DNA from: Macrostomum lignano | Taxonomy: Eukaryota | Direction of reading: 5' to 3' | Assembly (NCBI GenBank): GCA_002269645.1 | Contig: NIVC01001668.1 | Location: forward strand, 1 to 64,000 | Length of the DNA stretch: 64,000 nt | Shown: positions 27,326 through 43,879 of the stretch, one piece after another | Layout of the letters: each line of letters begins with the position of its first letter | Numbering within the stretch: the first letter of the stretch is position 1 | The notes under the pieces: model-generated | Seen by the model: the letters and a program-made list of their open reading frames with translations, nothing else | The model's database searches: none | What the model was told of the DNA's origin: nothing | Program-made: the position numbers and the translations under genes

Positions 27326-27365
27326 TGAAGTTCTTTGCCATTTTGGCGCAGAAATTGAAAACGGT

Positions 27366-28948
27366 AGTAGTATTATTAAATTACACGCACCCCACATTTT
27401 TACATGTAAAAATGAATATAGTCCCCACCTACACTCGAACTGTAATACGCCTCCGTCAGTTCGAGCTAACGAACGAAACGCAACTCGCCCAAGCCGGCGT
27501 TCGATAAGGTACAAATCTTAGCTTTCTTATCTTAATACGACACACTAACCAACACTAGCGTTCTCCCAAAAGAAATATTGAATTCAAAGTCCAATTCTTC
27601 CTTAGCCTTGGCCATTTATTTCTGCAAAGTATATTTGACTGAATTCGCCGCAAGTCCATACGCATTAAAAACGAGTAAGCAAATTACCGCAATCTAATAC
27701 GCAGATAGTTCATCGCGAAAGAACGCAAACGATTATAACAGCGCTTAAACAGATTCTCGGCGCCACCACCACTAATCATGCTCGCTAGAAAATCCTTCAA
27801 ACCACCACCACGATGCAGTTTAAAGTATAAATAAAACAAAACCCATATACCACAGTGCAGACTTGTTGGTTCTTGAATAGCAAAACGCGAATATTCCCAA
27901 TTTCCCCCTCCACAATTCCGTATAAACCACCGACGTATTAACTCACATGGATTTAACCCCAAGGAATCGAAATACTCTCCCTTCCTAGAGCCCCTCCTAC
28001 CCAACCTAAAACCCCCCACCCATAACAAAACCCAATGAGAACCCGGCAAATTTGAAGTATCGGTATTCACGATCAGAAAATAATGCCTTCTGTCTCTCGG
28101 GATTCGCGGGATACTACTCAACAAATCGACAGGAAAAATACCCAAAAAACAAACGTCTTTAAAACCGTTACATAGAATAATCACAACACGTTGCAAGAAC
28201 AAGTTCGTTACACCTTCGCCTCGCCTCATTTCCAAGCGGTTCCTGGCACAACGTCCCGCAGTTCGGTAATCTGTAGTTGCTTGTCGAAAACACCACCGAA
28301 AATAACGTTATAGACCTCCGCTGTAGCCGTTCCAAAACGCATCTCCAGTCGGACATTCCCTTCCTTATATAATTGTACCGCCGGCGCAACTCCCCCGTCA
28401 GATCCTAACGAATACGCGAGTATCGTATACCCTCCGTTGTAGTCCGCCATCGAGAACCCCAAATCCCGTCCTTGTAAATACAAACCCAGTTGTTGACGCA
28501 GAGTTGTATACTCCTTTGCACAATCCCCTGTGAAGTCGAATTGACTAGGCCGTGTCGGTACCGCCTCACCATTTACGTAAACTCCAACGCTGATCAAATT
28601 CGCATGCACGAAATTGAACGGATTTGTCGCCAGACTTCCATTAAATGCAGTATTTCCAACGACTACCACCAGCAAAAGACGTGGCACTCCGCTCGGAAAC
28701 AGATTTTCGTGCGTATGGCTTAACGACCCTTGCGGTATTGTGAACGTACCCAATGATAAACTGCGATGAGGGTACAAGGCATTATGGGTCTTCAAACCAT
28801 GTGCATGGGCTCCAATCACACTGGCAGATGGCTGAACATACCGCAAACGAAGCTCCGCACTCTGAATCTCAACCTCGTAATCCTTTAACACTGCCTCACC
28901 AATCTGTGCGGCACTTAACACGAATTTGCTCTTTGCCGGTAGTAACTT
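27366..28948. repeat. Left arm of the 1583-bp inverted repeat
   Basis: Reverse complement of 41384-42966; four substitutions found by eye (27419, 27467, 27842, 28370). Confidence 0.95.
27684..28235 (-). CDS. Adenain-like cysteine maturation protease
   Basis: NTD..GSHW, YFDSLG and IQ..SLHCG give the H-D-Q-C catalytic set. Confidence 0.95.
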   Translation of the reverse strand: MEMRRGEGVTNLFLQRVVIILCNGFKDVCFLGIFPVDLLSSIPRIPRDRRHYFLIVNTDTSNLPGSHWVLLWVGGFRLGRRGSRKGEYFDSLGLNPCELIRRWFIRNCGGGNWEYSRFAIQEPTSLHCGIWVLFYLYFKLHRGGGLKDFLASMISGGGAENLFKRCYNRLRSFAMNYLRIRLR

Positions 28949-29548
28949 TATCCGCAAAGGCGTCTTTGACAACAAATACCGTGGCTGACGAAATAGATCC
29001 AAAAACAAAGGCCCTGAAACCGTACAAGTTCTCCCACCCGCAATTAGTGCCTGTCGCTTCACTCGCCCAACGTTCGCGACGCCGGTGGCATTCATTTTTC
29101 CAGCAGTGTCCTTGTAAAATCCCCAGGCAGCCAATCCGCCGTCTTGTCCCAACCGACCATACTCCAAAAGCGTCAGAAGCATGGCCTTGTACGGATACAT
29201 GAAGCTCCCGCCTTCAACGACCGTATCTCCTATCCGCAATTGCACGTCTTCGAACAGCGTACTCACCACCATGTTATTCAGACAGACATAGTTTTTCGCA
29301 GCATCCACAGCCCCTCCACTCTCGTCTACTACTCGGATTCCAACAGTTAGAACTGTTTCTTGTAAGTCGACATACAAATCTCCAGCCGGTACAATCTCGA
29401 ACTCAATTGGCCCTCCTTGCGTAATCCCATGTTGAGGCTGTATATCCGTGTAGCGACTGTCCACAACACTGAATTGTACTGGTGGGCTGTCAAATAACGT
29501 CAACTCACTTTTCAATCCAGCGACGTCAGGCCCCAACAACTGATCCAT
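28226..29548 (-). CDS. Major capsid protein (double jelly-roll, hexon-like)
   Basis: 440 aa; KSELTLFDSPPVQ, GPIEF, VDLQET, LDLFRQPRYL and NPFNF motifs typical of Polinton MCP. Confidence 0.93.
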   Translation of the reverse strand: MDQLLGPDVAGLKSELTLFDSPPVQFSVVDSRYTDIQPQHGITQGGPIEFEIVPAGDLYVDLQETVLTVGIRVVDESGGAVDAAKNYVCLNNMVVSTLFEDVQLRIGDTVVEGGSFMYPYKAMLLTLLEYGRLGQDGGLAAWGFYKDTAGKMNATGVANVGRVKRQALIAGGRTCTVSGPLFLDLFRQPRYLLSKTPLRIKLLPAKSKFVLSAAQIGEAVLKDYEVEIQSAELRLRYVQPSASVIGAHAHGLKTHNALYPHRSLSLGTFTIPQGSLSHTHENLFPSGVPRLLLVVVVGNTAFNGSLATNPFNFVHANLISVGVYVNGEAVPTRPSQFDFTGDCAKEYTTLRQQLGLYLQGRDLGFSMADYNGGYTILAYSLGSDGGVAPAVQLYKEGNVRLEMRFGTATAEVYNVIFGGVFDKQLQITELRDVVPGTAWK

Positions 29549-29941
29549 CTACTTGCCAAACAAACTGAATAACTTTTTAGTCGTGGCGCTCGGCTTTTTC
29601 TTTTTACGTATGCGTCTAACTCGCCGACCACGTCCAACCTGTTTTTTTACCGCAGGTGTCTTTCTGCTTATACCCTTTTTCCTGACTCGTCGTCGCTTAA
29701 CCACAACTGGTCCATCAGTAGTCGTCAATCTACGTTTCTTACCCATTCCAATCGTCTTCTTCAGGAAGCTTAAACCGCCCTCTACTAAATCCTTCCGAGC
29801 TCTACGTAGCACGGGATATATCACTCTCTCTGTTAAATTCGTCAAATATCCGTATCCCTCGTACACAGGTATCGAACTCGACCCACCACCCGTCCGCGGC
29901 TGTGTACTAGGTCCCGAATAGAATGCAAAAACCGGATCCAT
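29549..29941 (-). CDS. Basic Arg/Lys-rich putative core (pVII-like) protein
   Basis: 130 aa; basic C-terminal half; QPRTGGG..PVYEGYG N-terminus; abuts the MCP start. Confidence 0.65.
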   Translation of the reverse strand: MDPVFAFYSGPSTQPRTGGGSSSIPVYEGYGYLTNLTERVIYPVLRRARKDLVEGGLSFLKKTIGMGKKRRLTTTDGPVVVKRRRVRKKGISRKTPAVKKQVGRGRRVRRIRKKKKPSATTKKLFSLFGK

Positions 29942-29970
29942 GAATGCCGAGCGAAACTATACGTCAAAAT

Positions 29971-31113
29971 CTACTTAAAGTGCTTTGCTAATACCCGTGC
30001 TGTCTCTTTATCTAGATCTGATTCAGCCAACCACTGACCTCTCGAGTCGGGCATTCCCTCCCACTTGACAAAATATCGCCTGCCCTTCTTCCCCATACGC
30101 TCAACACGCTCGACCCGATCAATTTTAACAACCTCCGCCTCAGGTTCAGCCACTAGAAGCAGTTCACCTTGGTTGAATCGACCCTCCAACACTGTCGAAT
30201 CGTCCTCGGGGTCTAACAGACCATAAGACGGTGGCTTCGTAGAATACACCCGATGAATTCGATACACCCTATTACTCCATGTCGTTGTGTAACCCTTCTC
30301 AAATTTTCCCTTTTGACGTGCAAGTCGTACCCAATCACCAACCTTAAAACGCGGAATAGGCCTCACATCGTCGCCATACAACTCCTCCCACACCATGCCC
30401 TGCAGATGGCCATCCGCACTCACATCAATGGGGCTACGACCATTTAAACTGCGGTGTGGAGAGTTATTCAACGCAAGCTCTAATTTTGGTAGAACATCAA
30501 ACCACCGGGCCAGATTTCGAGTCCGAAATAGTCGTAGTAATCGCTCCTTCACGGTGCGTATCAATCGCTCAGCCATGCTCGCTTTGTAGGTACTCTGACT
30601 TACGAAAAATCGTACGCCCTCACGCTTTAACATCGACTGAGTTTCTCGCCCAAGAAACTCTCGACCAGCATCGCCTTGTAAGTACAGCGGTTTAAACCCC
30701 GTGCGGAATATCTCATACAATACACGGCTCACCTCACTTGGCTTCTTCGTCTTCAAAGCTCTCAAGCGAGCCAACCTAGTGAAACAGTCGACTAATACGA
30801 GGATGTACCTGTAACCACGGTTTTCGTCCTGATATTGCGGTAAGTCTGCCAAATCAATCTGCATTTGAAATTTTGCAACGGGCGGTAGTTGTATTTTCGG
30901 AGTTTTGAACTTCCGATTCGACTTCTGGAACAGATGTATCTCCTTCGTCCTACGCACCCACTTGTCAACAACAGCCTTGGCTTTTTTTTGCGTTAACTCC
31001 GGATACCTCCGCCTCAAAACTCGTATAAATTGCTTCTTATTACCACTAAACGCAGTAGGGCGTTCCAAGTCGAAAAATGCCACGTCCAGAAACTTAAAAA
31101 AAATCGCTTCCAT
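29971..31113 (-). CDS. Retroviral-type (rve) integrase with C-terminal chromodomain
   Basis: QIDLAD / QGDAGREF / AERLIRT DDE triad; YFVKWEG..QW chromodomain. Confidence 0.95.
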   Translation of the reverse strand: MEAIFFKFLDVAFFDLERPTAFSGNKKQFIRVLRRRYPELTQKKAKAVVDKWVRRTKEIHLFQKSNRKFKTPKIQLPPVAKFQMQIDLADLPQYQDENRGYRYILVLVDCFTRLARLRALKTKKPSEVSRVLYEIFRTGFKPLYLQGDAGREFLGRETQSMLKREGVRFFVSQSTYKASMAERLIRTVKERLLRLFRTRNLARWFDVLPKLELALNNSPHRSLNGRSPIDVSADGHLQGMVWEELYGDDVRPIPRFKVGDWVRLARQKGKFEKGYTTTWSNRVYRIHRVYSTKPPSYGLLDPEDDSTVLEGRFNQGELLLVAEPEAEVVKIDRVERVERMGKKGRRYFVKWEGMPDSRGQWLAESDLDKETARVLAKHFK

Positions 31114-31140
31114 CCTCCGTATTAGCGGCTCTCCAAATTT

Positions 31141-31314
31141 TTATGATGCAGAACCCACATTAGTATTGCAACAGTTAAAACTTGCCTTTACCGTTACGTC
31201 TCCGTCAGGCTCCTCTGCGCGCAGTACGCGTTCCAATAAATTCGCAATGCAACCACCCTCCCCCAAAAAACAAATTCTAAAACGCTTGTACAACCACTGA
31301 AACACATTCGCCAT
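31141..31314 (-). CDS. Small 57-aa ORF (MANVFQWLYKRFRICFLG...NCCNTNVGSAS), unknown function
   Basis: ATG-to-TAA ORF filling the gap between neighbouring co-oriented genes; below the ORF-track cutoff. Confidence 0.45.
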   Translation of the reverse strand: MANVFQWLYKRFRICFLGEGGCIANLLERVLRAEEPDGDVTVKASFNCCNTNVGSAS

Positions 31315-31357
31315 CCCCAGACTCGATATATTTCACGTAAAATACAATGCTTATACA

Positions 31358-32029
31358 TTACGCTAGAGTCTCATAATCTTCCAAGGCTTGCAAGTCCCCA
31401 CCGCGCGACTCTGACTCGGGAGTAGGTTCCATGGGTGTTCCTTCCTCCAGAACGTTTCGCATATGCCGCCCTAGCATCGACGGTGGAATTGATTCCCTGC
31501 GAAGCAGTGAGACGAAACGTTCCAGCTCTGCCGCCGGAGGCGATCTCCCTCGTTTCAATGGTTGGTCGCGAGTGACATACTCTACTAGCTCGTCAAAATC
31601 TCCTCCTCCAATCTCATTCGCAGCACCTGTCAGCCTTGCCTTCAGACGGTCGAAACGTGGTTGTACATTACGGGGGAGTCGCCTCCCCTTCTCGGTCTCA
31701 CCCTCCGTCGGGCCATCATGACCAACGGATGAGCGAACCTCTGGCGGGGTCTCACCATTCTTATTGTACAGAGACCGCGTTTGTAGCAACCGACTCTCCA
31801 AATCAGTTCTTTCCAACTGTGCGGTTGTAGGCTGCAGACTAGTCGATTCACCAATCTCCCGGTCAAGCCTATTCATCTCACCTTGCATTTCAACAATATT
31901 CTTACCCAAAGCGTCCACAGGTCCGTCCAATACTCCCGTCCTTCGCTCATCTTTCGCCGTACATTCCAAATAAGCCTGCAACGGCAGCAAAACCATTCGC
32001 TGAAGAGTTCCTCCTCTATTGACTGGCAT
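31358..32029 (-). CDS. Hypothetical Polinton protein (223 aa, coiled-coil N-terminal half)
   Basis: Co-oriented, tightly packed ORF with ATG; no motif recognised. Confidence 0.75.
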   Translation of the reverse strand: MPVNRGGTLQRMVLLPLQAYLECTAKDERRTGVLDGPVDALGKNIVEMQGEMNRLDREIGESTSLQPTTAQLERTDLESRLLQTRSLYNKNGETPPEVRSSVGHDGPTEGETEKGRRLPRNVQPRFDRLKARLTGAANEIGGGDFDELVEYVTRDQPLKRGRSPPAAELERFVSLLRRESIPPSMLGRHMRNVLEEGTPMEPTPESESRGGDLQALEDYETLA

Positions 32030-32030
32030 A

Positions 32031-32468
32031 TTACCTACGCCGTCCGGCCCGAATTGCTCGAACTAGATTTGCCGTCCCCGCAGCCGTACCGGCCAATCCC
32101 GATGTAATCCCTAGAGCCGTGCCAATGGCTGGCAAAGCAGAAATTATCGGAGCAAGAAACGGCAGGAAACCACCACGCTGTACCAAAATTTCCTTCCTGG
32201 CTCTAGTTGATTTTTTCTCCTTCAACAATTCTTGTATCGGTTTCCGATAGCGTTCTAAACGTTTCTTGTCACACGACTTTAACGGCACGCGTCCTTTTAC
32301 GATATTCAAAAGAAACTCAACCAGGCAACGCACCTCGCCCGGACTTAAACTTCGCAGAAATCGCTTGCGCTGGTCCAATCCCCGAAGCCTCGCGACAACT
32401 TGCAATAGGAAGGCACACTGGGACAATGATCGCGCGCTTTGTACGCTCTTTTCTGTCAGCCCGGTCAT
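32031..32468 (-). CDS. Putative virion protein with an adenovirus pX/Mu-like hydrophobic C-terminus
   Basis: QRGG-FLPFLAPIISALPAIG resembles the adenovirus pX segment MRGG-ILPLLIPLIAAAIG. Confidence 0.65.
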   Translation of the reverse strand: MTGLTEKSVQSARSLSQCAFLLQVVARLRGLDQRKRFLRSLSPGEVRCLVEFLLNIVKGRVPLKSCDKKRLERYRKPIQELLKEKKSTRARKEILVQRGGFLPFLAPIISALPAIGTALGITSGLAGTAAGTANLVRAIRAGRRR

Positions 32469-32512
32469 TGTCTATCATGCCTTCTACTGATTCCGACTGT
32501 ACTTGCTTATAA

Positions 32513-33469
32513 TCAATCGTCTCGTACCCTGAAGTGCAGCACAGCAATCACATGGCTTCCATCAGGGAAATTCAAATCTTGCCCCCGTTGGTCGGCCAGA
32601 CGAATGGAGATCTCATTAATGTAGCTCCGATTTGTCCGCAAGTAATATGGCGTCTGCAAAGCATTTCCGTCTCGTCGAAATATTCCGTTCTTTTCCTGGC
32701 GAAACTCAACCACGCGAAGTAGCGGAACCTGACGACTTCCAACCATTTGATATTCAACAATGTCGCTATAGCAGTACATGTAAACACTCCGCAGTATCGC
32801 TTCGGGTATTCTATCCAAATAGACCTTCGTCAGACCCCACGCACGATTTTTCCTCCAATACTCAACCACCTCCTTTAACGTATCCCCGGCAGGCCGTATT
32901 ACCTGCGTACTCTTCATCCAGACGGCGAAACCAGGTTCCAAGACAGCACGAAAATCGTACCAATTCGAATCTAATATACCTGCCTCGTCCATTGCATTCG
33001 TTATGTTCGTCCAGGATTCACCCGCCGCATCCGCGGGTTGGGTGCGTCCGTCGTGAGCTGTCAAACCCCACGTACTGAAACCAAAGCATGTCAAAAAACT
33101 CCTTGGCAGTTCAATGCCCATACGTCGGCTGCCGGAATTTCGCAAATACCAAACATATGCTTTAGTAGCCGGCGTCCACGACAAGTGTACCTCCAAATCA
33201 TCGGCCTGCCAGACCTTACCCAAGAAGACTTCATCTGTTTTCTCGATAATTTTCTCGATGTTGCAATAATATATCACCTTCACCTCTTCTCGAAGTTCCG
33301 CCGAGGAAGTTTCCGCCGGCGGGCTGTTACATAGCAAATCCACCAAAGCCACTTCATACTTCCCAGCCGGCGCTAGATTCAATGGTGTAGTTAGCCGCAC
33401 CCGAAACTCGTGCGCAGAATTGGTCGGATAACTACGATCGTTTGACGGAATAAACACAAAGAAACTCAT
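32513..33469 (-). CDS. Minor capsid protein (penton-like)
   Basis: PSN...N....FRVRL..PL.L...YEVAL N-terminus; YCYSDIV..Q.VG...VPLLRVV and I.IRL.DQ.G C-terminus. Confidence 0.88.
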   Translation of the reverse strand: MSFFVFIPSNDRSYPTNSAHEFRVRLTTPLNLAPAGKYEVALVDLLCNSPPAETSSAELREEVKVIYYCNIEKIIEKTDEVFLGKVWQADDLEVHLSWTPATKAYVWYLRNSGSRRMGIELPRSFLTCFGFSTWGLTAHDGRTQPADAAGESWTNITNAMDEAGILDSNWYDFRAVLEPGFAVWMKSTQVIRPAGDTLKEVVEYWRKNRAWGLTKVYLDRIPEAILRSVYMYCYSDIVEYQMVGSRQVPLLRVVEFRQEKNGIFRRDGNALQTPYYLRTNRSYINEISIRLADQRGQDLNFPDGSHVIAVLHFRVRDD

Positions 33470-33499
33470 AATCTCACCCCATAAGCTGTAGCCGCTTCC

Positions 33500-34213
33500 T
33501 CAAAACTTGCTTATAATATCCTCCTCCTTGATAGTCTCCGGACGCATATAAACAACCTGGTGAGTGTCACTCGGAAAGACATTCGTCCGTATGCGTATCA
33601 TATCCGGCGTGTCCTGTCGTAAGTCTATGAAGAGATAGCTGAAGGCCTTGTCACCCGTCGCGTCGTCATAAGCCTGCACCAGAAATCTACTAGCTCGGGG
33701 GTACATCTGCCGACCCAAATGTTCAACGGCGCTACGATCCCTAACATTTCGGCTTAAACAGATATAACTCGTCGATAAACTTCTTTTTCTTGCCTCAGGA
33801 TCCGCAGGGTCAAACAAATTTTGGCACAAATAAAGACAAGTCAATGGCGTATGATGAGCCAATTTGGTGAATACAGCGGTAAAAGCGCGTTGCTTTGCAA
33901 CTTCACCCTGCAAATCATCAACAACGACTAAATCGTGCGGCTTGAATCTAGCCAACAACTGATCGGGGAATCCCTGTACGAAGTGACATTCGCCACTTCC
34001 ACCCAATGTCCAACATTCTCGAACTCGTTTTTCCTCAGACGAATGTAACTCTGTACCGTGACACCAAATTAGACGCCTTGGTACTACTCGAAACAGACCC
34101 AAGCGCTCCCTTACCAGTCGAAGCACCCATTCAGTCTTTCCCGAATTCGAAGGACCTGCGACGATAAACGTCGAGTCATGAGCAAATCGCAAGTCGAATG
34201 TACGCCTGTCCAT
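33500..34213 (-). CDS. FtsK/A32-like packaging ATPase
   Basis: Walker A GPSNSGKT, Walker B VVVDD, LCQNLF and Q.YP motifs; first ATG at 34213. Confidence 0.93.
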   Translation of the reverse strand: MDRRTFDLRFAHDSTFIVAGPSNSGKTEWVLRLVRERLGLFRVVPRRLIWCHGTELHSSEEKRVRECWTLGGSGECHFVQGFPDQLLARFKPHDLVVVDDLQGEVAKQRAFTAVFTKLAHHTPLTCLYLCQNLFDPADPEARKRSLSTSYICLSRNVRDRSAVEHLGRQMYPRASRFLVQAYDDATGDKAFSYLFIDLRQDTPDMIRIRTNVFPSDTHQVVYMRPETIKEEDIISKF

Positions 34214-34214
34214 T

Positions 34215-34670
34215 CTAGGCACCCAAACGCTGTTTTACGTTCATAACACGGGATACCAGTTTTGCGGCCAAACGTTCCCCCCACTTAGTTGTAGGATCCG
34301 CAGCAATCTCTCGAGCTCCTGCTTCGAGTTGTTGATCGGCCTTTGAACGCTCTGCCACGTCCGAGTGCTTCTCGTATGCCAGGTCGTGTAAGAGACACAA
34401 TTTATCGAGCCGATTCTTCCCAGTATCGCCCCGCGCTAAACGTTCTCTCAATCTGGTCCCGGGGCCGCAGAATTGGTAACCCCCCGGCAAATGAAGCTCC
34501 CCTGGGAGATGATTTATTACCCAATTAACAATACCAAACCCCGTCTGACCTCGACGACGAGATTTCTTAGCTCGAGTCGACTTTGCTGCTGTCGAACGCA
34601 CTCGCTTCTTCTTCTTCTGTCGGCCTTGTGTTCCCATCCCACTTAATTGTACCAAAAGAACCAATTGCAT
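34215..34670 (-). CDS. Parvovirus-type phospholipase A2 domain protein (PLA2X)
   Basis: YQFCGPG Ca-binding loop, LDKLCLLHDLAY (HD), downstream AD; basic N-terminus; first ATG at 34670. Confidence 0.9.
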   Translation of the reverse strand: MQLVLLVQLSGMGTQGRQKKKKRVRSTAAKSTRAKKSRRRGQTGFGIVNWVINHLPGELHLPGGYQFCGPGTRLRERLARGDTGKNRLDKLCLLHDLAYEKHSDVAERSKADQQLEAGAREIAADPTTKWGERLAAKLVSRVMNVKQRLGA

Positions 34671-34783
34671 TTGCTTATACACACAGTGGTTAAATCCACG
34701 AGCAGTATATTGTATTAATAATCAAAGTGACAAGCCGCCACCAATTCCCACCACCGACCGACGGGCTCCGGGCGTGACCAGCA

Positions 34784-35401
34784 TCACATGTTAGTGCTGC
34801 CCATGCCACCCGTCTCGCGAACCGCCACCGGCTCCGGTTGTCGGTGCCACACCCCCGGCAGCTGGCCCTCGCGAGCTCGACCGACTTCTACCGGGGGCGT
34901 GACGCAGCGCTCCAGAATCAATTGGGCCACGCTGGTGGCACACGACAGATGAACTTTCTCATCTGACGTGTTGTGCAGGATCACGCGGAGTTCCCCGGTA
35001 TAGTCCGGGTCAACCACGCCACCCTGCACATTTAGGCCTCGGTTGGCCCAACTGGACCGGCTCGCTATCCGACCATAGGTGCCCGGCGGCAGCATCACCC
35101 GGAGGCCGGTGCGAATGATGGCCGTGTCAAAGGCTTCCACAGTGCGGTCTTCGCACGTGGCTAGGTCGTAGCCCACCGACCCGGCCGTAGCTCGCCGAGG
35201 CATCACTGCCCCGGCATCCGTGAGCACTACGCGCAGCGGGACCGTCGAGCAAGAGTCGGAGCTCATAGTGGCTGCGGGATCATAGTTCATCTTATGCTTA
35301 GGAGGTTCTTCGTCCTCTAAAATAAGTCTAGTACTACCCGCGTAATCCTCGTCCCAATCAAAAAAACTAAGCCTAGTACTAATCCCCTGCACTGCCATCA
35401 T
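34784..35401 (-). CDS. dut: dUTPase with acidic N-terminal extension
   Basis: Five motifs: VGYDL, GRIASRSS, GVVDPDYTGE, VAQLI and RETGGMGST; ATG 4 nt after a strong polypyrimidine-AG. Confidence 0.92.
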   Translation of the reverse strand: MMAVQGISTRLSFFDWDEDYAGSTRLILEDEEPPKHKMNYDPAATMSSDSCSTVPLRVVLTDAGAVMPRRATAGSVGYDLATCEDRTVEAFDTAIIRTGLRVMLPPGTYGRIASRSSWANRGLNVQGGVVDPDYTGELRVILHNTSDEKVHLSCATSVAQLILERCVTPPVEVGRAREGQLPGVWHRQPEPVAVRETGGMGSTNM

Positions 35402-35526
35402 AGGCCTAGAAAAACGAAGAGAAAGAAGGAAAGGCGGATTCTTGCATATACATTCGATAATTGCGCGCATATATTGTGTGCAGAAAAAGCATAAACAGAC
35501 AGAAAACAGAGAGCGGAGAGAACAAG

Positions 35527-38500
35527 TCAAGTCAACCGCCAATGACCAAATGGGAGGGATGAGTAGGGATCGAGCCAGGCTCGCTTCGTGTCGAAGAAGC
35601 TAAGCGCCTGCTTGCGCTGCTCAAGAAGATAAATCTTCTGTCGTCGCGAAGTAATCGTCCGCATCGTTACATGCTCCAAAACTCGATCCTTCAACACACT
35701 CAAAAATACATTGTGCTTCATACCTCTTACAATCGACTTCGACACGCCCTTGCAACGCACAATCTGACAGAGGCTTTCCTTTGCATACACCATTGAATAG
35801 TTTTTCGGGCGTAGAAATGCAAACTCCAACAGTGTACAACCGGAAACTTCATCTTTCCAGGCCATTAACTTCCCTTTATACTTTGTTGTATAAAGCGGAT
35901 GAGAAGGTGGATAATTACTAGTGTCTAACACACCGCACTCCACCAAGTCTTTAAACAATGTCTCCTGAGGACTCGTCTCCGGGTCGGCCATAACCAATGC
36001 CAGGATCAAACTATCCGTATCTCCACCAAGCACGCGGGCAGAAGCAAGCGACCTATGGCATTGAATCCTTGAATAGAAAAACTCGTAGACAAATGTTTTC
36101 GCAAGGTCCAGAATAGCGCTACCAATCAGAATTGGCTTGTTTAGCAATACTCGACGAGGAGTCAAACTCACGCCCGCTAGACGATCTGTATACAGAATCA
36201 CGTCCATAAACTCCTCTTTAGCGACATACGTTTCCAACTTCTCGGCAGTAGTACACATGCGATAGCTGAGTCGGTCTCGAACTCGCTGCAGAAACTTGCC
36301 GTACACAGCATTGTTCAATAGTTTAAAGAAATCTCGATCGAAATCGCTAGTCGCCTCAGACCGCCGACGAATATTATGTTCAATATATTCCTGTAGAATA
36401 GGACCTTCTACGAATTCGAGAACACGATTAACCCGCGTCACGCGCATGCCTAACTCGAGGTAAAGACGCAATGCTCGATGATGTACAATGTACCCTGTTT
36501 TATGCGTAACAGAGCCAATTAGTTTCCTTGTCGGAGAAGTGAATCGTTTTACGTCCTCGTATACCTCCGCATTCCTCTTCCTGGGATCAAGCTGGCGTTG
36601 CAGACAAACCCAATCCTGCTTCATATGCTCGGTTAAATAGGCACTATCAATTCTTTCATGGCCAATAGCCAGAGGTAGATCGGCAGTTGAGTCGTGCAAA
36701 AACTTTGGGTAGTAAAGATCGACATTCAATAACGCCCCTCGTCCATTCGAGCAATAGCTAGACAACCAAGCCAAAAACTTGCTCGACTTGTTCGGATTTT
36801 CCAACTCAGCTGCCTCATCATCAACTGATAGATTTTCAATCACTTCACGGGGCAACCAACGATAGGCCTTATACGGCAGCGCCTGCACCATACAACTGGC
36901 ATAAAGAGAATTAGCATCAAGGTAGGCCAAGTGAGTGCCATACGGTGCATTCCGCCGTAGTTCTCTTAAATTGTCGTCGTCGTCATCCAGCTGCCGACGA
37001 CATTCTTCTACCATTGGATTATTTGCCGTAGTAAGATGGCGAGTGCCAAAACTGAACCCACCTCGAATCGAAGCTTCAACCTCGGAGTACATACGAGCGT
37101 CTGTAAACAACTCGATCGGCTTCTTCACCTTCAACAGACACGCAGCCAGACTATACATTGGCGATCCGAGAAAATGACACACATCCAAACCGTATTCTCG
37201 AATTGCAGTCCGACGAAAACTCTCAAATACGTCGCATAACAGTAGTACATCCAACAGTAAATACGCAGTCAGATAGTCACGCAAATTGGCACAATCAAAC
37301 TCTTGCCAACTCTGCTGAGCGCGTGTGTACTCCTCCTTAGAACACTCTTGCCGGGTCATTGCGTCGTAAAACAAATCTCGCGATGGCAGTTCAGTCACAC
37401 TGTCCAACTTCTCTTCAGAGTCCAAGTAACAATACGGAAACACTCCCTTCTGCTGCAGAGTAGACAGTTGGAGTTTAGGATAAACATTCAGCAAATCTCG
37501 ACAGTGTACCAATTGTTCCTGCGTCAAACGGTTTGCCAGACTAGCTAGACTTGTCGACAAGTACGCAAACGTGTCCTTGAAGCAGATTTCAAACCAAACA
37601 AAATTCTTCTTCTTCTGCTTTTGTTGCTGCGGCCGTTGACTGCCAACCAGCAGCGGTACCTTGAACTTTAATGAAAACGTCTTAAACCGTTCCCTAGACT
37701 CGGGAAGAACGTGCAGTTGAACGTCGTCTTCTCCACTAAACACATTGTACACCTCACGAACAATTATTTTACCGTCATATCCTCGAAGATTGTGCAGGTA
37801 GACGATAATTCGATAGCGCTGCAGGGCAAGTTTTCGATTGCACGACATGCAAGCCATTCCACGTGGAAGACCACTCAAATGACAATGATCCCAGACTTGA
37901 GACTCGTCAGCGGAAAACTCGCGACGACAGACGTAGCATCGATCTGTGCTAGGACGCTGACCTAGATACTTTCTAAGCATTGGTCTATAAGTCATCTTGC
38001 TAGTCGCATTAGTTACTTCGAATGCAAGCTCGCGCAGAGCCAAGAGAAACCTGCCAATACAATCTGTTGTGCCAGGCGTAGAATAAAACAACTTGCATGG
38101 AGTATTGTATCTGCTCAACAAATCCTCCCTCGTTACACTATCCAAATCCGGATCGACAACCAAACGAAAGGCCACACAAACGGGCACGTGAATTTGTAAA
38201 ACATGGCTGTTAGCCGTAGGCACTGGCAGGCCCTTGACGAGGCCCCCCGATGCCTTTTCAACAGGTACAAGTAGACTCTCAATATCAGCATAAACCAAAT
38301 ACAGCGGCGGCAGTCGAGTCTCGTAGGCTGAAAAAGACAAAAATGCTTTGCCCTCCTCTGGTAAAACCTCCTCCGTGACTGGCTTTGGCGTTCGAATGAA
38401 GCCGCCGCCGCCGCCGCCGCCTGGTTGCTCCTCCGTCGTCTGGCCACACACGTGTTCTTTCAAGATATAATCCCAAGACGTGGTGTGAATAAAGCTCGCC

Positions 38501-39975
38501 AGACATTCAGGACAATAGCGCCGGCGTTTAGCACGAGAACTCAACAGCCTATCCAGATTTAGCACCGCCATGTAGTGTCCATACTTGAATTCTGCGTAAG
38601 GTGGTATGAACAGACAATTGACTGGCGCAAGGTCACCAGTGGAACGACGAAAATTAAAAAACAGCACGGCAGTATTCGTGGCATGACTCCAGACAAACAC
38701 ACGCATCAGTCTAATTCGAGGGTTCAGCCGGCAAAACTTTCTGTAGCTCCCAATTGAGTGACGAGTCACTCCGGCGCGCGTAAATCGAAAGCTTTTCAGC
38801 CAAGGCCTGTAAGACGCCTTTCGCCTTTTACGGGCTTGCCCTTCGACCTGTGAGGAAAAGACGCTCGACACGACAGCATACATAAAACAATCATGCTGAT
38901 CTGCTCGGTGCGGGCGTAGAAACAAAACCGCTCCCGGCATACGACCAACAGCCAGTGGAACGCGGAATGGAACGGAACGGGTCGGAGCGGATTCTGTTGG
39001 ACCGCCGCCCGCCTGCGCGCCCGCCGCCGCCGCCGCCACGCCCGCCGCCACCACCACCGCCGCCCCGCCACCCGCTCCCCACACGTCCTGCTGCTGCTGC
39101 CGACGACTGCTAGTGTTCGACTGTAGTAGTAGATATTTTCGGCGGAATATGCACAGCATAACGTCGACCTTGACAACGCCGAGGAACTTCCAGTTACTAC
39201 CTCGGGACTGAAAGTTGTCTAATTTAGCTACCAGATCGTTTGTTGTCTCGCTGTACCATTGGTTGAAAACGTCCTCAGAGAGAAGAAGTACACGGCGGCC
39301 GGCGGCTGGAGCATTCGCATCGAAGGAGACCATAACGACTTTGGAATTGAAGAAGGGCGCGATTACTTCTACCTCTTCGTTGTGGGGGGATTCACCAGCA
39401 GCCGTGTCATTGGCGGGGGGATAACGGGTACGATACATTTTTACATTAAGATGTATACATGTACGGAGTAAACAGTCCGCAGATCCGAGAGAGTTAAAAA
39501 GACGAAAAACTGGAACTTGCAGTTGTGGAAGTAACTCGCTGGGTGGTTCGGTATCGCCATCGTCCTCGTCCAGCAGAGGCGTGAACGTCAGAAAGTTCGC
39601 CCGACCTCGGTGTGCGGACTCGGTATGTTGTACCGACCAGCCTGGTGGAGTGTCCTCTTCGATTAGCCGACGCACTGGTTCTCGAAGTAAAAGTTGGTCT
39701 GGTTGATAGCACGAGCCATTGTGCGAGTGCCCATGGAGGGCGGCTTGACTGTTGAATCTCTGCCGGCACACGGGGCATCTGATTTGTTTCGTCGTCGTCG
39801 TCGACGGCTGGAATGGTGTTGGCGATTGTTGGCGACGGGGTGGTTGTGATAATCGCCTAAATAGTTTGCTCGGTGGTAAAAATAAGGAAGGAATGCACAG
39901 CCTTAAGTTTGGTGGACAGTCCAAAAATGTCCTCCGCCGCGTGGTTAAACTGTATTTTACTTTGCAGAGATACAA
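35527..39975 (-). CDS. polB: Protein-primed family B DNA polymerase with N-terminal Zn finger, terminal-protein/vOTU region and endonuclease-VII insertion
   Basis: YADIES exonuclease motif, DHCH..G..RG..C..CN EndoVII, DANSLY, KLLNNAVYGK, GGDTDS, RPKNY; ORF starts at TTG and the first ATG is codon 180. Confidence 0.97.
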   Translation of the reverse strand: MYLCKVKYSLTTRRRTFLDCPPNLRLCIPSLFLPPSKLFRRLSQPPRRQQSPTPFQPSTTTTKQIRCPVCRQRFNSQAALHGHSHNGSCYQPDQLLLREPVRRLIEEDTPPGWSVQHTESAHRGRANFLTFTPLLDEDDGDTEPPSELLPQLQVPVFRLFNSLGSADCLLRTCIHLNVKMYRTRYPPANDTAAGESPHNEEVEVIAPFFNSKVVMVSFDANAPAAGRRVLLLSEDVFNQWYSETTNDLVAKLDNFQSRGSNWKFLGVVKVDVMLCIFRRKYLLLQSNTSSRRQQQQDVWGAGGGAAVVVAAGVAAAAAGAQAGGGPTESAPTRSVPFRVPLAVGRMPGAVLFLRPHRADQHDCFMYAVVSSVFSSQVEGQARKRRKASYRPWLKSFRFTRAGVTRHSIGSYRKFCRLNPRIRLMRVFVWSHATNTAVLFFNFRRSTGDLAPVNCLFIPPYAEFKYGHYMAVLNLDRLLSSRAKRRRYCPECLASFIHTTSWDYILKEHVCGQTTEEQPGGGGGGGFIRTPKPVTEEVLPEEGKAFLSFSAYETRLPPLYLVYADIESLLVPVEKASGGLVKGLPVPTANSHVLQIHVPVCVAFRLVVDPDLDSVTREDLLSRYNTPCKLFYSTPGTTDCIGRFLLALRELAFEVTNATSKMTYRPMLRKYLGQRPSTDRCYVCRREFSADESQVWDHCHLSGLPRGMACMSCNRKLALQRYRIIVYLHNLRGYDGKIIVREVYNVFSGEDDVQLHVLPESRERFKTFSLKFKVPLLVGSQRPQQQKQKKKNFVWFEICFKDTFAYLSTSLASLANRLTQEQLVHCRDLLNVYPKLQLSTLQQKGVFPYCYLDSEEKLDSVTELPSRDLFYDAMTRQECSKEEYTRAQQSWQEFDCANLRDYLTAYLLLDVLLLCDVFESFRRTAIREYGLDVCHFLGSPMYSLAACLLKVKKPIELFTDARMYSEVEASIRGGFSFGTRHLTTANNPMVEECRRQLDDDDDNLRELRRNAPYGTHLAYLDANSLYASCMVQALPYKAYRWLPREVIENLSVDDEAAELENPNKSSKFLAWLSSYCSNGRGALLNVDLYYPKFLHDSTADLPLAIGHERIDSAYLTEHMKQDWVCLQRQLDPRKRNAEVYEDVKRFTSPTRKLIGSVTHKTGYIVHHRALRLYLELGMRVTRVNRVLEFVEGPILQEYIEHNIRRRSEATSDFDRDFFKLLNNAVYGKFLQRVRDRLSYRMCTTAEKLETYVAKEEFMDVILYTDRLAGVSLTPRRVLLNKPILIGSAILDLAKTFVYEFFYSRIQCHRSLASARVLGGDTDSLILALVMADPETSPQETLFKDLVECGVLDTSNYPPSHPLYTTKYKGKLMAWKDEVSGCTLLEFAFLRPKNYSMVYAKESLCQIVRCKGVSKSIVRGMKHNVFLSVLKDRVLEHVTMRTITSRRQKIYLLEQRKQALSFFDTKRAWLDPYSSLPFGHWRLT

Positions 39976-40268
39976 TTATGTAGACAATTTGAATATTTAG
40001 GAATGAACAGCAGGCTAGTAAGTAGTAGGTCGTTGATGGTGGTTGAAAGAATAGAATCGTATAACTTAGTCAATGGTAGTGTTTTTAGGGGTCTGAATCA
40101 GTTCGAATGGATCATCATGATAAACAAAAATCGTTGGGTACGCATGGGAATTTTACCTTCAGGTAGTAATAGTGGTAGGTGGTGTTTTTTCAACTTGGTA
40201 GGGGCTCGGTTGAATTTAGGTGTTTATTACTACAGCAGAAAATCGTTGTTGTTAATATCAAGTGCATG

Positions 40269-41069
40269 TCAGAGCTCACGACGAATGATGCCGCCAACAA
40301 GATGGGCTAGATCGGTCGTAGATGTATCCGATCTGATTAGAATTTCGTGTACGTTCGAGTAGTCCTGGTAGTGTCGTGTAAACGCCTCGTCTAGCGATCG
40401 TAGATAGTCCAGGGAGATGCCAGTCTCCTCACCGCTGCGTCCGCGCTGCGCGATGCGTTGAATGGCCAACTCCGGGTCAATGCGCAGGTAAATAAGCGTC
40501 GTGTTCGCGCCGGTAAAGGGTACCCCAGTCGCTTCGAGGACGTCTAGTTGGCGCTGAGCAATCGCCCATTCGGTGTCAGACAGCGAGCCTTGACGGTGTA
40601 GTACGTCTTGGAATGCTCGAGCCGACCCGAGGCAGCGGTCGAGGATAACCACCTTGTTGTTGGATTGTTGGTTAACCTCATTCCGGACCTGGGTGGTAAC
40701 ACAAGATTGGCAAAAGTAGCTATACCGTGCGTGTCTTTCGACATTGGTTGTACATGCAGTAGGAGCTATACGAAAGGAATTGCTAGATACTATAGTACCA
40801 CTTACTTTGCTGTCTCTGTCGAGCAAGTCGTGGGAGACGTGCTGTTGGAATGCGACGGCCGGAAGCTCGCCTCGATAGAATGACTGAAGCAGATTTACCG
40901 AGTCCGGGAGGAGCGGGTGTCGCGCGTACTGGTGAACAGGCTCGGGACCGAAGACGGCTTTGTCGGCCCAACCCTCGAGGCGGGAGGTGAGAGCCAGTTC
41001 TCGAAGCAACGTCGACTTCCCGGCACCGATTACGCCCTCCAGGAGAAAAATGCGAGACTGGCTCGTCAT
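40269..41069 (-). CDS. Deoxynucleoside kinase (dNK family) with a probable intron at 40689-40805
   Basis: LEGVIGAGKST P-loop, PEPV, ILDRCLGS, IYLR..PE....RI..RGR..E lid, YL..L...F. Confidence 0.88.
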   Translation of the reverse strand: MTSQSRIFLLEGVIGAGKSTLLRELALTSRLEGWADKAVFGPEPVHQYARHPLLPDSVNLLQSFYRGELPAVAFQQHVSHDLLDRDSKVSGTIVSSNSFRIAPTACTTNVERHARYSYFCQSCVTTQVRNEVNQQSNNKVVILDRCLGSARAFQDVLHRQGSLSDTEWAIAQRQLDVLEATGVPFTGANTTLIYLRIDPELAIQRIAQRGRSGEETGISLDYLRSLDEAFTRHYQDYSNVHEILIRSDTSTTDLAHLVGGIIRREL

Positions 41070-41114
41070 ATTGGCTAGAATTGGAACAAATTCTGGTTTC
41101 GGAGCGGCTTCCTG

Positions 41115-41383
41115 ACACAATTGTTTAACAATGTTGATCATTTCTAAAATCTGGCTAGTAGTCTTTGCACCTATTATAACGATCTTAAGGGAAAGAAAAA
41201 TATTGCACACCGTCCTATTGAGTGGAGCAGTACTACGGAGGGTGATGGCTTGTGGGAATATCTCCGCGTCGTAATACAGCCGAGCTGTGTGAAACGGCCC
41301 GATAAATTTTTTCAGGGTCGAAAATTTGAGTCCAGGATAGTGGAGCAGACCAACGGTTGTAGAGCTGATTATACGAATCGATG
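41115..41383 (-). CDS. TATA-binding-protein-like repeat, 5'-truncated, in frame with the dNK
   Basis: YDAEIFPQAITLR...TVCNIFLSLKIVIIGAKT aligns by eye with TBP YEPELFPGLIYR...LLIFVSGKIVITGAK. Confidence 0.65.
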
Positions 41384-42106
41384 AAGTTACTACCGGCAAA
41401 GAGCAAATTCGTGTTAAGTGCCGCACAGATTGGTGAGGCAGTGTTAAAGGATTACGAGGTTGAGATTCAGAGTGCGGAGCTTCGTTTGCGGTATGTTCAG
41501 CCATCTGCCAGTGTGATTGGAGCCCATGCACATGGTTTGAAGACCCATAATGCCTTGTACCCTCATCGCAGTTTATCATTGGGTACGTTCACAATACCGC
41601 AAGGGTCGTTAAGCCATACGCACGAAAATCTGTTTCCGAGCGGAGTGCCACGTCTTTTGCTGGTGGTAGTCGTTGGAAATACTGCATTTAATGGAAGTCT
41701 GGCGACAAATCCGTTCAATTTCGTGCATGCGAATTTGATCAGCGTTGGAGTTTACGTAAATGGTGAGGCGGTACCGACACGGCCTAGTCAATTCGACTTC
41801 ACAGGGGATTGTGCAAAGGAGTATACAACTCTGCGTCAACAACTGGGTTTGTATTTACAAGGACGGGATTTGGGGTTCTCGATGGCGGACTACAACGGAG
41901 GGTATACGATACTCGCGTATTCGTTAGGATCTGACGGGGGAGTTGCGCCGGCGGTACAATTGTATAAGGAAGGGAATGTCCGACTGGAGATGCGTTTTGG
42001 AACGGCTACAGCGGAGGTCTATAACGTTATTTTCGGTGGTGTTTTCGACAAGCAACTACAGATTACCGAACTGCGGGACGTTGTGCCAGGAACCGCTTGG
42101 AAATGA
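41381..42106 (+). pseudogene. Duplicated C-terminal 241 aa of the major capsid protein
   Basis: Protein identical to the MCP C-terminal half; ATG formed at the repeat junction. Confidence 0.8.
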
Positions 42107-42966
42107 GGCGAGGCGAAGGTGTAACGAACTTGTTCTTGCAACGTGTTGTGATTATTCTATGTAACGGTTTTAAAGACGTTTGTTTTTTGGGTATTTTTCC
42201 TGTCGATTTGTTGAGTAGTATCCCGCGAATCCCGAGAGACAGAAGGCATTATTTTCTGATCGTGAATACCGATACTTCAAATTTGCCGGGTTCTCATTGG
42301 GTTTTGTTATGGGTGGGGGGTTTTAGGTTGGGTAGGAGGGGCTCTAGGAAGGGAGAGTATTTCGATTCCTTGGGGTTAAATCCATGTGAGTTAATACGTC
42401 GGTGGTTTATACGGAATTGTGGAGGGGGAAATTGGGAATATTCGCGTTTTGCTATTCAAGAACCAACAAGTCTGCACTGTGGTATATGGATTTTGTTTTA
42501 TTTATACTTTAAACTGCATCGTGGTGGTGGTTTGAAGGATTTTCTGGCGAGCATGATTAGTGGTGGTGGCGCCGAGAATCTGTTTAAGCGCTGTTATAAT
42601 CGTTTGCGTTCTTTCGCGATGAACTATCTGCGTATTAGATTGCGGTAATTTGCTTACTCGTTTTTAATGCGTATGGACTTGCGGCGAATTCAGTCAAATA
42701 TACTTTGCAGAAATAAATGGCCAAGGCTAAGGAAGAATTGGACTTTGAATTCAATATTTCTTTTGGGAGAACGCTAGTGTTGGTTAGTGTGTCGTATTAA
42801 GATAAGAAAGCTAAGATTTGTACCTTATCGAACGCCGGCTTGGGCGAGTTGCGTTTCGTTCGTTGGCTCGAACTGACGGAGGCGTATTACAGTTCGAGTG
42901 TAGGTGGGGACTGTATTCATTTTTACATGTAAAAATGTGGGGTGCGTGTAATTTAATAATACTACT
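41384..42966. repeat. Right arm of the 1583-bp inverted repeat
   Basis: Ends ...aataatACTACT; coordinates mirror the left arm exactly. Confidence 0.95.
42097..42648 (+). CDS. Second full copy of the adenain-like protease (one V/I difference)
   Basis: Identical to 27684-28235 except WVL vs WIL. Confidence 0.9.
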   Translation: MEMRRGEGVTNLFLQRVVIILCNGFKDVCFLGIFPVDLLSSIPRIPRDRRHYFLIVNTDTSNLPGSHWVLLWVGGFRLGRRGSRKGEYFDSLGLNPCELIRRWFIRNCGGGNWEYSRFAIQEPTSLHCGIWILFYLYFKLHRGGGLKDFLASMISGGGAENLFKRCYNRLRSFAMNYLRIRLR

Positions 42967-43879
42967 AGTGTCATATAACTTGAAAGCGACACTTATTATA
43001 ATCCTGCGTGCCATTAGTCTTGTGGCTGCAGCCAGGTCCGTGACTAGCTATCTATTAATGGCGTGAAGCATTCCCGGTGGCAGTGAAATTAGATATTGAA
43101 CAAATGGCCTCTGTCTATGCATAATCGCTACTGGCTTAGCTAAGGTATTGGATTTATGCTGGCTGTCAGGGCCTTCTGTCTGCTAACATGGGCGTGGTCC
43201 CTCAGTGAATTGGATTTTCTGCCCTGCCCTCCCCTTTTTCCATCCTCATCTGTCCCTGATTAGAAATCTTCCCCTTTGCAGCCTACATATCGGGTTTAGC
43301 GTTGCCTGCCCCATCATGCAGAGGATTTGTGGGATCTGCGAGAGCGCTGGTCAGTATTGGGCGGGGCGATGCTGGTACGACAGGGATTAGAGAGAGAGAG
43401 GGGGGTGAGGATCACAAATATACCTATATAGTCTATAAGATCAATCTACTTTAGAATTGGGGTTCTCATAGCGTTGAAATTTGCATTTTTATTTTAAAAA
43501 TACTATAGACGATAGGAGCTTATTATTATTTTTTTTTATAAAATTCCGCTATCTGCCTCGCTCCCGGCCCCTGAACTTGACTGACAGGCGATCCCTAATG
43601 CGCTCACTATTTTTAGTTCGCCGCTGCTCAACAGAGACACAAGACGACTTAAAAGGCAAACAGGGCAGAGGAGAGGAGAAGGCAAAGAAAAAAACTGACT
43701 GACTGTGTTGCAATCATTTGAGCACTTCTCTCTGGGCGCTCGTTCCGTCGACTGGTTGAATCTTCTCTCTGCAGCTTAATTATAGAGCTGCCACCGGCTG
43801 TTCCCTGGGGAGGCAGGCAGGGGCTACCGCTCAGCTCAGCTCACATCGTTTTTTTGAGTGCCGGTCCGTGTGAGCAGCC

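Follow-up and report, generated by a model that had tools for sequence, protein, structure and literature searches.

The window analysed here, a 64,000-nucleotide stretch of the Macrostomum lignano genome, contains a rearranged Polinton/Maverick copy (Table 1). Genes recognized in this element by Pfam include a family B DNA polymerase primed by protein (pPolB; DNA_pol_B_2, E 3.5e-20), a dUTPase, a PLA2-domain protein, a putative packaging ATPase (Pox_A32, E 0.024) and an integrase with a chromodomain (rve, E 5.3e-7, 30.3 bits against a cut-off of 32.6), and a protein-X-like gene is also present. No Pfam match was obtained for the ORFs that we label, from their motifs, as putative capsid and protease genes; the gene order, including the ATPase, capsid and protease genes, is conserved across families. 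Terminal inverted repeats starting with AGTAGT were found at both ends of two further copies (C362 and C297), with a 64-bp match. A 6-bp target-site duplication was absent, the flanks differing in all three copies that have both ends (window, C362 and C297), possibly reflecting recombined or mosaic-assembled copies.

Table 1 Features of the rearranged element in the window, with position, strand and basis of assignment.
Feature	Position	Strand	Basis
Rearranged Polinton/Maverick copy, AGTAGT termini	27366..42966	.	Gene content, termini
TATAAGGA box before putative protease gene, inside capsid ORF	28362..28369	-	
TATAAGCA box before putative major capsid gene, inside upstream basic-protein ORF	29665..29672	-	
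TATAAGCA box between PZ-like gene and integrase, no long ORF within 220 nt (window's family)	31348..31355	-	
TATAAGCA box before protein-X-like gene	32504..32511	-	
TATAAGCA box before putative minor capsid gene	33508..33515	-	
TATAAGCA box before PLA2-domain gene	34672..34679	-	
pPolB; acceptor ends at 39808	35527..39807	-	Pfam DNA_pol_B_2; leader loose end on L061
Deoxynucleoside kinase (dNK), own ATG at 41069, in frame with the TBP exon in the window's family	40269..41069	-	Pfam dNK
In-frame GT-AG dNK intron, 117 nt	40689..40805	-	RNA joint on a copy; identical window sequence
TBP second (C-terminal) repeat with short linker, truncated remnant of a two-repeat exon	41070..41383	-	Pfam, PDB, other copies
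Candidate splice acceptor, 5 nt before dNK ATG	41075..41090	-	Sequence; use unseen in RNA
Inverted duplicate of the left end: terminus, protease-like gene, 3' half of capsid gene	41380..42966	+	Inverted repeat with 27365-28952
First 68 ORF codons, antisense to the capsid gene of the inverted arm, non-TBP	41384..41588	-	Peptide start, junction mapping

Upstream of the kinase gene (PF01712, match with P-loop, 85.5 bits), the reading frame is free of stops, and the peptide quoted in the earlier note agrees letter for letter with ORF 40269-41588 (-) up to the kinase ATG. The bounds of the segment in question required a small correction: in-frame codons begin at 41384 or 41381, not at 41383, where the note had placed the start. 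In a Pfam search of the 105-aa segment, the TATA-binding protein (TBP) family was the sole match (E 6.4e-4), its 20.0 bits lying under the curated cut-off of 22.9 bits for PF00352, and all 31 PDB sequence matches were TBP or TBP-containing chains (best E 2.7e-4). These matches, together with the full saddle in other copies, identify the segment as the second TBP repeat, in agreement with the earlier proposal of half a saddle.

The loss of the first repeat, which had been suspected at this same junction, is explained by the inverted arm, which in the assembled sequence joins the TBP segment at 41384|41383. The arm forms a 1.59-kb inverted repeat with the left end (27365-28952 versus 41380-42967; 6 differences in 1587 nt) and stands in place of ~6.1 kb of the right end, where copy C362 has 6.1 kb of other sequence. 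Since this inverted left-end copy adjoins the junction, the ORF opens with 68 codons that run antisense to the capsid gene; the antisense ORF 28744-29202 has the same peptide start. A two-repeat saddle is thus absent from the window copy, in which repeat 2 stands alone and repeat 1 is replaced by the inverted arm. With the upstream gene, here termed upX, and the splice acceptor also missing, this copy probably makes no working TBP.

C362 measures ~21.1 kb between its AGTAGT termini, the 6.1 kb missing from the window included. Compared with the window, this copy (L013) has an insertion of ~0.8 kb, with an assembly gap, in its protein-X-like gene. The right end that is absent from the window carries a multi-intron gene on the opposite strand with several GT-AG joints (L061:5339-6912, +), and a second spliced gene lies close to the terminus (L061:8023-8093, -). 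Inverted capsid/integrase blocks and internal deletions are frequent in other families as well (L103 (C1704), L110 (C3805), L067, L073, L074, L018, L019).

A DNA search of the animal's own genome gave 11 matches, comprising the window, seven copies at 97-99% identity and three decayed fragments at 82%. The upstream sequence could be recovered from these copies as had been hoped: all seven near-identical copies possess the first TBP repeat and its acceptor, with both repeats in a single open frame in three and repeat 1 frameshifted in four, and the frame from repeat 2 into dNK is open in every one of them. The full 181-aa domain scored 29.7 bits against the Pfam TBP profile, above the cut-off; among representatives of the five other families described below, three passed the cut-off, one fell under it and one gave no match. 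AlphaFold, supplied with a 103-sequence alignment that included cellular TBPs, modelled the full TBP with a pLDDT of 96.6 and a pTM of 0.87, and in a Foldseek search with this model ranks 1-44 were all TBPs (TM 0.67-0.76). The modelling shows that the full gene in other copies adopts the two-repeat TBP saddle. A single-sequence AlphaFold run of the TBP-dNK protein failed to fold (pLDDT 40.5) and was not used.

Taken alone, the window fragment, with its score under the Pfam cut-off, would be compatible with a chance resemblance or a decayed piece of the host TBP. For the family, this explanation is refuted by the full saddle, the conserved synteny and the residues that are invariant in six families; with an identity of 19-22% to the host TBP and a separate clade in the tree, its probability is negligible.

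The wider distribution of the gene was then assembled from several searches. A protein search of the genome returned 77 matches from 86 candidates, and PF00352 run over the genome returned 330 candidates, of which 150 were scored. In the fetched contexts, six Polinton families share the gene order upX - TBP - (dNK) - pPolB - dUTPase - virion genes, and their TBPs show 29-40% identity. Word-seeded protein searches with the TBP domain and its alignment found nothing, though relatives exist according to a profile search of 1.84 billion representatives, which yielded four close relatives (E below 1e-30) and 115 weaker matches. In a quick tree of 103 sequences, which left out 16 longer or shorter matches and contained no named giant-virus sequence, the Polinton TBP family forms a single clade (SH-aLRT 96). 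Host TBP/TRF falls outside this clade, as does a second TBP lineage, which a different Polinton group in this genome carries; within the clade, C2529 and C889 are sister families among the six. The closest TBP pair, C2529/C1090, differs at 4 synonymous and 9 non-synonymous sites, with no clear signal of purifying selection. More than 20 near-identical copies make up the C753/C593 family, and the two that were mapped lack most of pPolB and have an open TBP frame.

The second Polinton group (L056, L057, L077-L080, L098, L099; e.g. G000:C414:266190-266444), which bears the different TBP lineage, has a pPolB that is ~30% identical and convergent with the other genes, and in the copies read its TBP has its own ATG and overlaps the end of the upstream ORF. 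Outside the flatworm, a large group of unnamed divergent TBPs (P0005-P0119; ~150-210 aa) with an R-P-x-M-type first loop was found on short metagenome or run contigs, and a 47-member group of unnamed divergent TBPs has in common with the Polinton family an R-P-x-M-type loop in repeat 1. The P0005-P0119 group is probably viral. Cluster look-ups of 20 proteins from the divergent clade led to two clusters with a name, one of them a plant TBP and the other labelled generically as TBP; IMG/VR gave three loci, the one examined being a giant-virus-type contig; and a metagenome scan with P0006 found none. Among the fold matches in BFVD are proteins of giant viruses, asfarviruses, iridoviruses and ascoviruses, and the clusters that lie nearest in the Atlas are half viral.

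The earlier note had further supposed that intact members might encode either a full TBP or a TBP-dNK fusion. A full TBP is indeed encoded, while an open fusion frame is confined to the window's family, one of six, where all eight copies have it; because these copies are 97-100% alike, they represent one event. TBP and dNK are separated by a stop or a frame change in three other families and by a stop 55 nt before the kinase match in one, and the C753/C593 family has no dNK. In C1704/C1975, C1680/C3758/C3805 and a deletion copy, C322, the frame meets a stop 37-104 nt ahead of the kinase match; in C2529/C1090 and C889, TBP reads through dNK in another frame, and codon differences in this read-through tail number 0 synonymous and 16 non-synonymous, compared with 12 and 4 in the dNK frame. 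At the 3' end of TBP, the read-through families showed neither a conserved donor nor an AATAAA by which the protein could terminate ahead of dNK. Acceptors resembling the window's candidate site lie immediately upstream of the dNK ATG in those other families with dNK that were inspected.

For transcript evidence, contigs were searched from three runs of three studies, taken to be RNA by guess as none is recorded as such, with one DNA run as comparison. The joint of the 117-nt dNK intron was present in all three presumed-RNA runs and absent from the DNA run. Alignments of dNK in other families are ~40 codons shorter, so this intron looks like a family-specific gain.

A selected bifunctional TBP-dNK protein that couples nucleotide salvage to promoter binding would account for the frame being open throughout the window's family, for an intron that preserves this frame and for presumed-RNA contigs from three studies that span the TBP-dNK join. 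We nevertheless consider it very unlikely, since the fusion is missing from five of the six families, dNK retains its own acceptor and ATG, and the out-of-frame read-through tails of the sister families are unconstrained. Most likely, one family lost the stop codon and tolerated the resulting fusion, and, judged by sequence conservation, the constant partner of TBP is upX, reached upstream via a conserved donor, and not the kinase.

In none of the six families does an ATG precede the TBP fold, and the first in-frame ATG lies 60-129 nt inside it. A pyrimidine-rich phase-0 acceptor ends right before TBP residue 1 in all six, being the most pyrimidine-rich of 4-12 nearby sites in five families and the third in the sixth. 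Upstream lies upX (L061:3523-4482, -), which has two exons, a conserved N-terminal domain and a low-complexity tail. This tail contains a single in-frame GTRAG donor in phase 0 with the motif K-x-L|V-S (E-Q-L|V-S in L070), located 259-619 nt upstream of the TBP acceptor and found in six of six families and 11 of 12 loci; the twelfth locus, lacking a placed pair, is a decayed copy whose acceptor was not placed. The unspliced upX tail is partly conserved too. No Pfam or PDB match was found for upX, and in the Atlas it was associated exclusively with viral clusters bearing DUF2738/DUF5871 (0.87-0.94, low recognition), a weak pointer; DUF2738 presumably has a role in binding single-stranded DNA.

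Given the missing ATG, the phase-0 acceptor and the conserved phase-0 donor in upX, a spliced upX-TBP protein is the likely product, and from the intron we infer two isoforms, upX and upX-TBP. The early region is transcribed and spliced, as neighbouring introns are joined in presumed-RNA contigs, including a 90-nt upX intron that is removed in two of the three presumed-RNA runs and not in the DNA run. No joint at the TBP acceptor was among those listed for the three presumed-RNA runs, which were searched as contigs, a form that drops rare transcripts, and contigs of X11 and X12 span the proposed upX-TBP intron unspliced.

A different kind of start was observed for pPolB, whose frame has no ATG for more than 100 codons. 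On one contig, in one of the three runs (run X12, copy L061, L061:1408), the host spliced leader is joined to the pPolB acceptor in phase 0, so that the leader AUG is in frame with pPolB. The acceptor lies directly before the gene in four of the six families, and the other two have an ATG there. The leader letters match the published M. lignano leader (excerpted text of PMC8629364) and occur 58 times in the genome; a GT donor follows the leader in both tandem-array loci read and in none of six dispersed loci. L081-L086 are dispersed copies of the 3' part of the leader that lack a GT donor and are probably inserted reverse-transcribed copies. Rfam gave no match for the leader genes.

That the leader AUG also starts TBP was our first reading, which was demoted when the conserved upX donor was discovered. 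A stand-alone TBP, with its start codon supplied by the 3'-terminal AUG of the host leader trans-spliced onto the phase-0 acceptor, is the main rival for the protein start because the leader is joined at pPolB, leader loci with a GT donor exist in the genome and flatworm leader AUGs start some ORFs (excerpts of PMC9851317 and PMC12582326); since flatworm acceptors are shared by cis- and trans-splicing (excerpts of PMC12582326), it could coexist with the cis form. However, the TBP acceptor has a paired phase-0 cis donor upstream in every family, and predominant trans-splicing requires an unpaired acceptor (available passages of PMC8629364); moreover, no leader was present at the TBP acceptor among the loose ends listed for the three presumed-RNA runs. 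We consider a leader-started TBP unlikely.

The predicted DNA-facing surface was compared residue by residue between 12 family proteins and the host TBP, using yeast numbering, in which 25 of 25 positions matched the host TBP letters. In canonical TBP, the C-terminal pair of phenylalanines produces the kink at the 5' TA step, and the N-terminal pair the one at the 3' end. The four intercalating phenylalanines are not all present in the family: F99 is replaced by proline in 11 of 11 proteins and F116 by tyrosine in all 12, as are V122 by threonine, V161 by threonine and L205 by asparagine, while L114 is glutamine in 11 of 12. A change of N159 to serine or threonine is shared, and both central asparagines are lost. 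F190, F207, R196, K211 and E188 are kept in all 12 proteins. On this pattern of residues, the family gene is best described as a divergent TBP rather than a canonical one, and the retained C-terminal pair combined with an altered N-terminal pair would fit a target in which the 5' TATA is preserved and the 3' half differs. The C-terminal stirrup remains acidic, with E186 present as Asp in eight proteins and as Asn or Ser in four; E188 corresponds to the main TFIIB-contact glutamate (excerpts of PMC10005294).

A box of the TATAAG type, first spotted by eye and counted afterwards, precedes most virion genes. On the sense strand of the virion-gene half, five families together contain 36 TATAAG sites compared with a simulated mean of 6.5 (maximum 14 in 200 runs), and 18 occurrences of TATAAGCA compared with 0.4 (maximum 3); the early half contains four TATAAG sites, three of them before dUTPase. 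Information in the box spans 8-9 bases. In most cases, 43-55 nt separate the box from the minor-capsid or protein-X gene and ~158 nt from the capsid gene (124 nt for the window's family); the protease gene has one 134-140 nt upstream in three of the five families, with none seen in the other two, and the ATPase gene has its own box in one of five. Several sites fall in Tyr-Lys codons of overlapping ORFs, and the sequence that follows the box showed no clear initiator motif. Because near-invariant changes on the DNA face coincide with a TATAAG(C/T)-type box before most virion genes, the sequences suggest that the viral TBP may act as a late-gene switch.

The same residues can also be read as those of a decoy or repressor that would occupy host TFIIB, NC2, Mot1 or TAF surfaces, or silence promoters, with the box being read by host TBP or by a helper-virus polymerase. 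The box includes ATAAG, a sequence contained in baculovirus late promoters, which it thereby resembles, and the family has lost one of the four intercalating phenylalanines and carries a tyrosine for another; TRF2, which misses such a residue, does not bind TATA (excerpts of PMC10005294). This alternative is improbable, however. The DNA-face changes are fixed across proteins that share 30-40% identity, a pattern more readily explained by selection for new contacts than by decay; T directly precedes 36 of 49 ATAAG sites; and in the host's second Polinton group with a TBP, TATAAG occurs 0-1 times per 10 kb on the sense strand, with none before the ATPase or capsid genes.

We consider it moderately probable that these Polintons encode an alternatively spliced upX-TBP that activates late genes through a private TATAAG box, the dNK fusion of one family being accidental. 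An early transcript would yield upX alone when the intron is kept, or upX-TBP when it is removed. The viral TBP domain would then bind the TATAAG(C/T)-type box, which host TBP would read poorly, and recruit host TFIIB and RNA polymerase II via the stirrup glutamate that it has kept. In the window's family, the C-terminus would be extended by dNK for want of a stop, giving a protein of ~710 aa in total, probably a tolerated accident; a separate dNK is likely produced as well, using the acceptor and ATG of that gene.

More tentatively, and rather less confidently than the splicing and activator model itself, animal Polintons may use host RNA polymerase II for an early-to-late programme of their own, in which a spliced, rewired upX-TBP reads a private TATAAGC promoter ignored by host TBP and pPolB takes its start codon from the host leader, the elements being part of a wide, undescribed clade of viral TBPs.

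Compared with cellular TBP and TRF proteins (PF00352), the Polinton protein shares the two-repeat saddle of ~180 aa, with structural similarity to solved TBPs in the range given above, as well as the C-terminal phenylalanine pair and the main TFIIB-contact glutamate. It differs in its low identity (16-22%), the proline and tyrosine at positions 99 and 116, a polar DNA face devoid of the central asparagines, the absence of a start codon of its own and its location on a mobile element. Divergent virus-encoded TBPs are already known from giant viruses and mirusviruses, as far as the excerpted literature goes. The TBP-like proteins of Nucleocytoviricota and mirusviruses are likewise divergent and virus-encoded, yet those viruses are large, whereas the Polinton is a 21-kb integrating element. 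Most nucleocytoviruses encode their own RNA polymerase; no RNA polymerase or TFIIB gene was found among the examined ORFs of the 21-kb Polinton.

The gene content otherwise resembles that of known Polintons/Mavericks (adintoviruses), as represented in the available text of Starrett 2021 (PMC8502044), in pPolB, the chromodomain integrase, the ATPase, the PLA2 domain, the protein-X-like gene and the AGTAGT termini. In that text, the legend of Fig. 5, which belongs to the part on non-animal datasets, names a TBP-like gene for MELD viruses and elements related to them; the available passages mention no splicing, promoter box or function. The accessible part of the supplement file (~4.0 million characters) held no TBP match, and in the portions available TATA did not occur in PMC8097293, nor TBP or TATA in bioRxiv 10.64898/2026.06.19.733378. 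Within the literature found, as far as its accessible text extends and with subscription journals, Repbase entries and preprint supplements outside its scope, no TBP in an animal Polinton/Maverick was encountered, the MELD-virus legend being the one mention of TBP; the earlier note's impression that none was known there is in line with this.

Parallels exist for both proposed modes of expression. For the leader-started pPolB, the precedent is found in flatworm spliced-leader ORFs (Cheng 2006, as cited in excerpts of PMC9851317 and PMC12582326), where the leader-terminal AUG likewise stands in frame with a gene that has no near start codon; the recipient here is a viral polymerase gene. For upX-TBP, one N-terminus combined with two C-termini by retention or removal of an intron resembles other small DNA viruses. 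Polyomavirus small/large T and adenovirus L4 22K/33K are both products of alternative splicing; in the flatworm Polinton, by contrast, the spliced-on part would be a whole basal transcription factor fold.

This TBP gene is easily missed, as the one public gene model found (a UniRef match) splices the TBP out. If true, a polymerase start codon supplied by the leader would tie the elements to hosts whose leaders end in AUG. The protein may represent a natural altered-specificity TBP, in which fixed changes on the minor-groove face go together with a TATA variant that contains G/C. A dedicated TBP with a matching box would make it directly testable how Polintons, which encode no RNA polymerase, set the timing of their capsid genes; a laboratory flatworm in which the early region of the element is transcribed and spliced is a host well suited to such a test.
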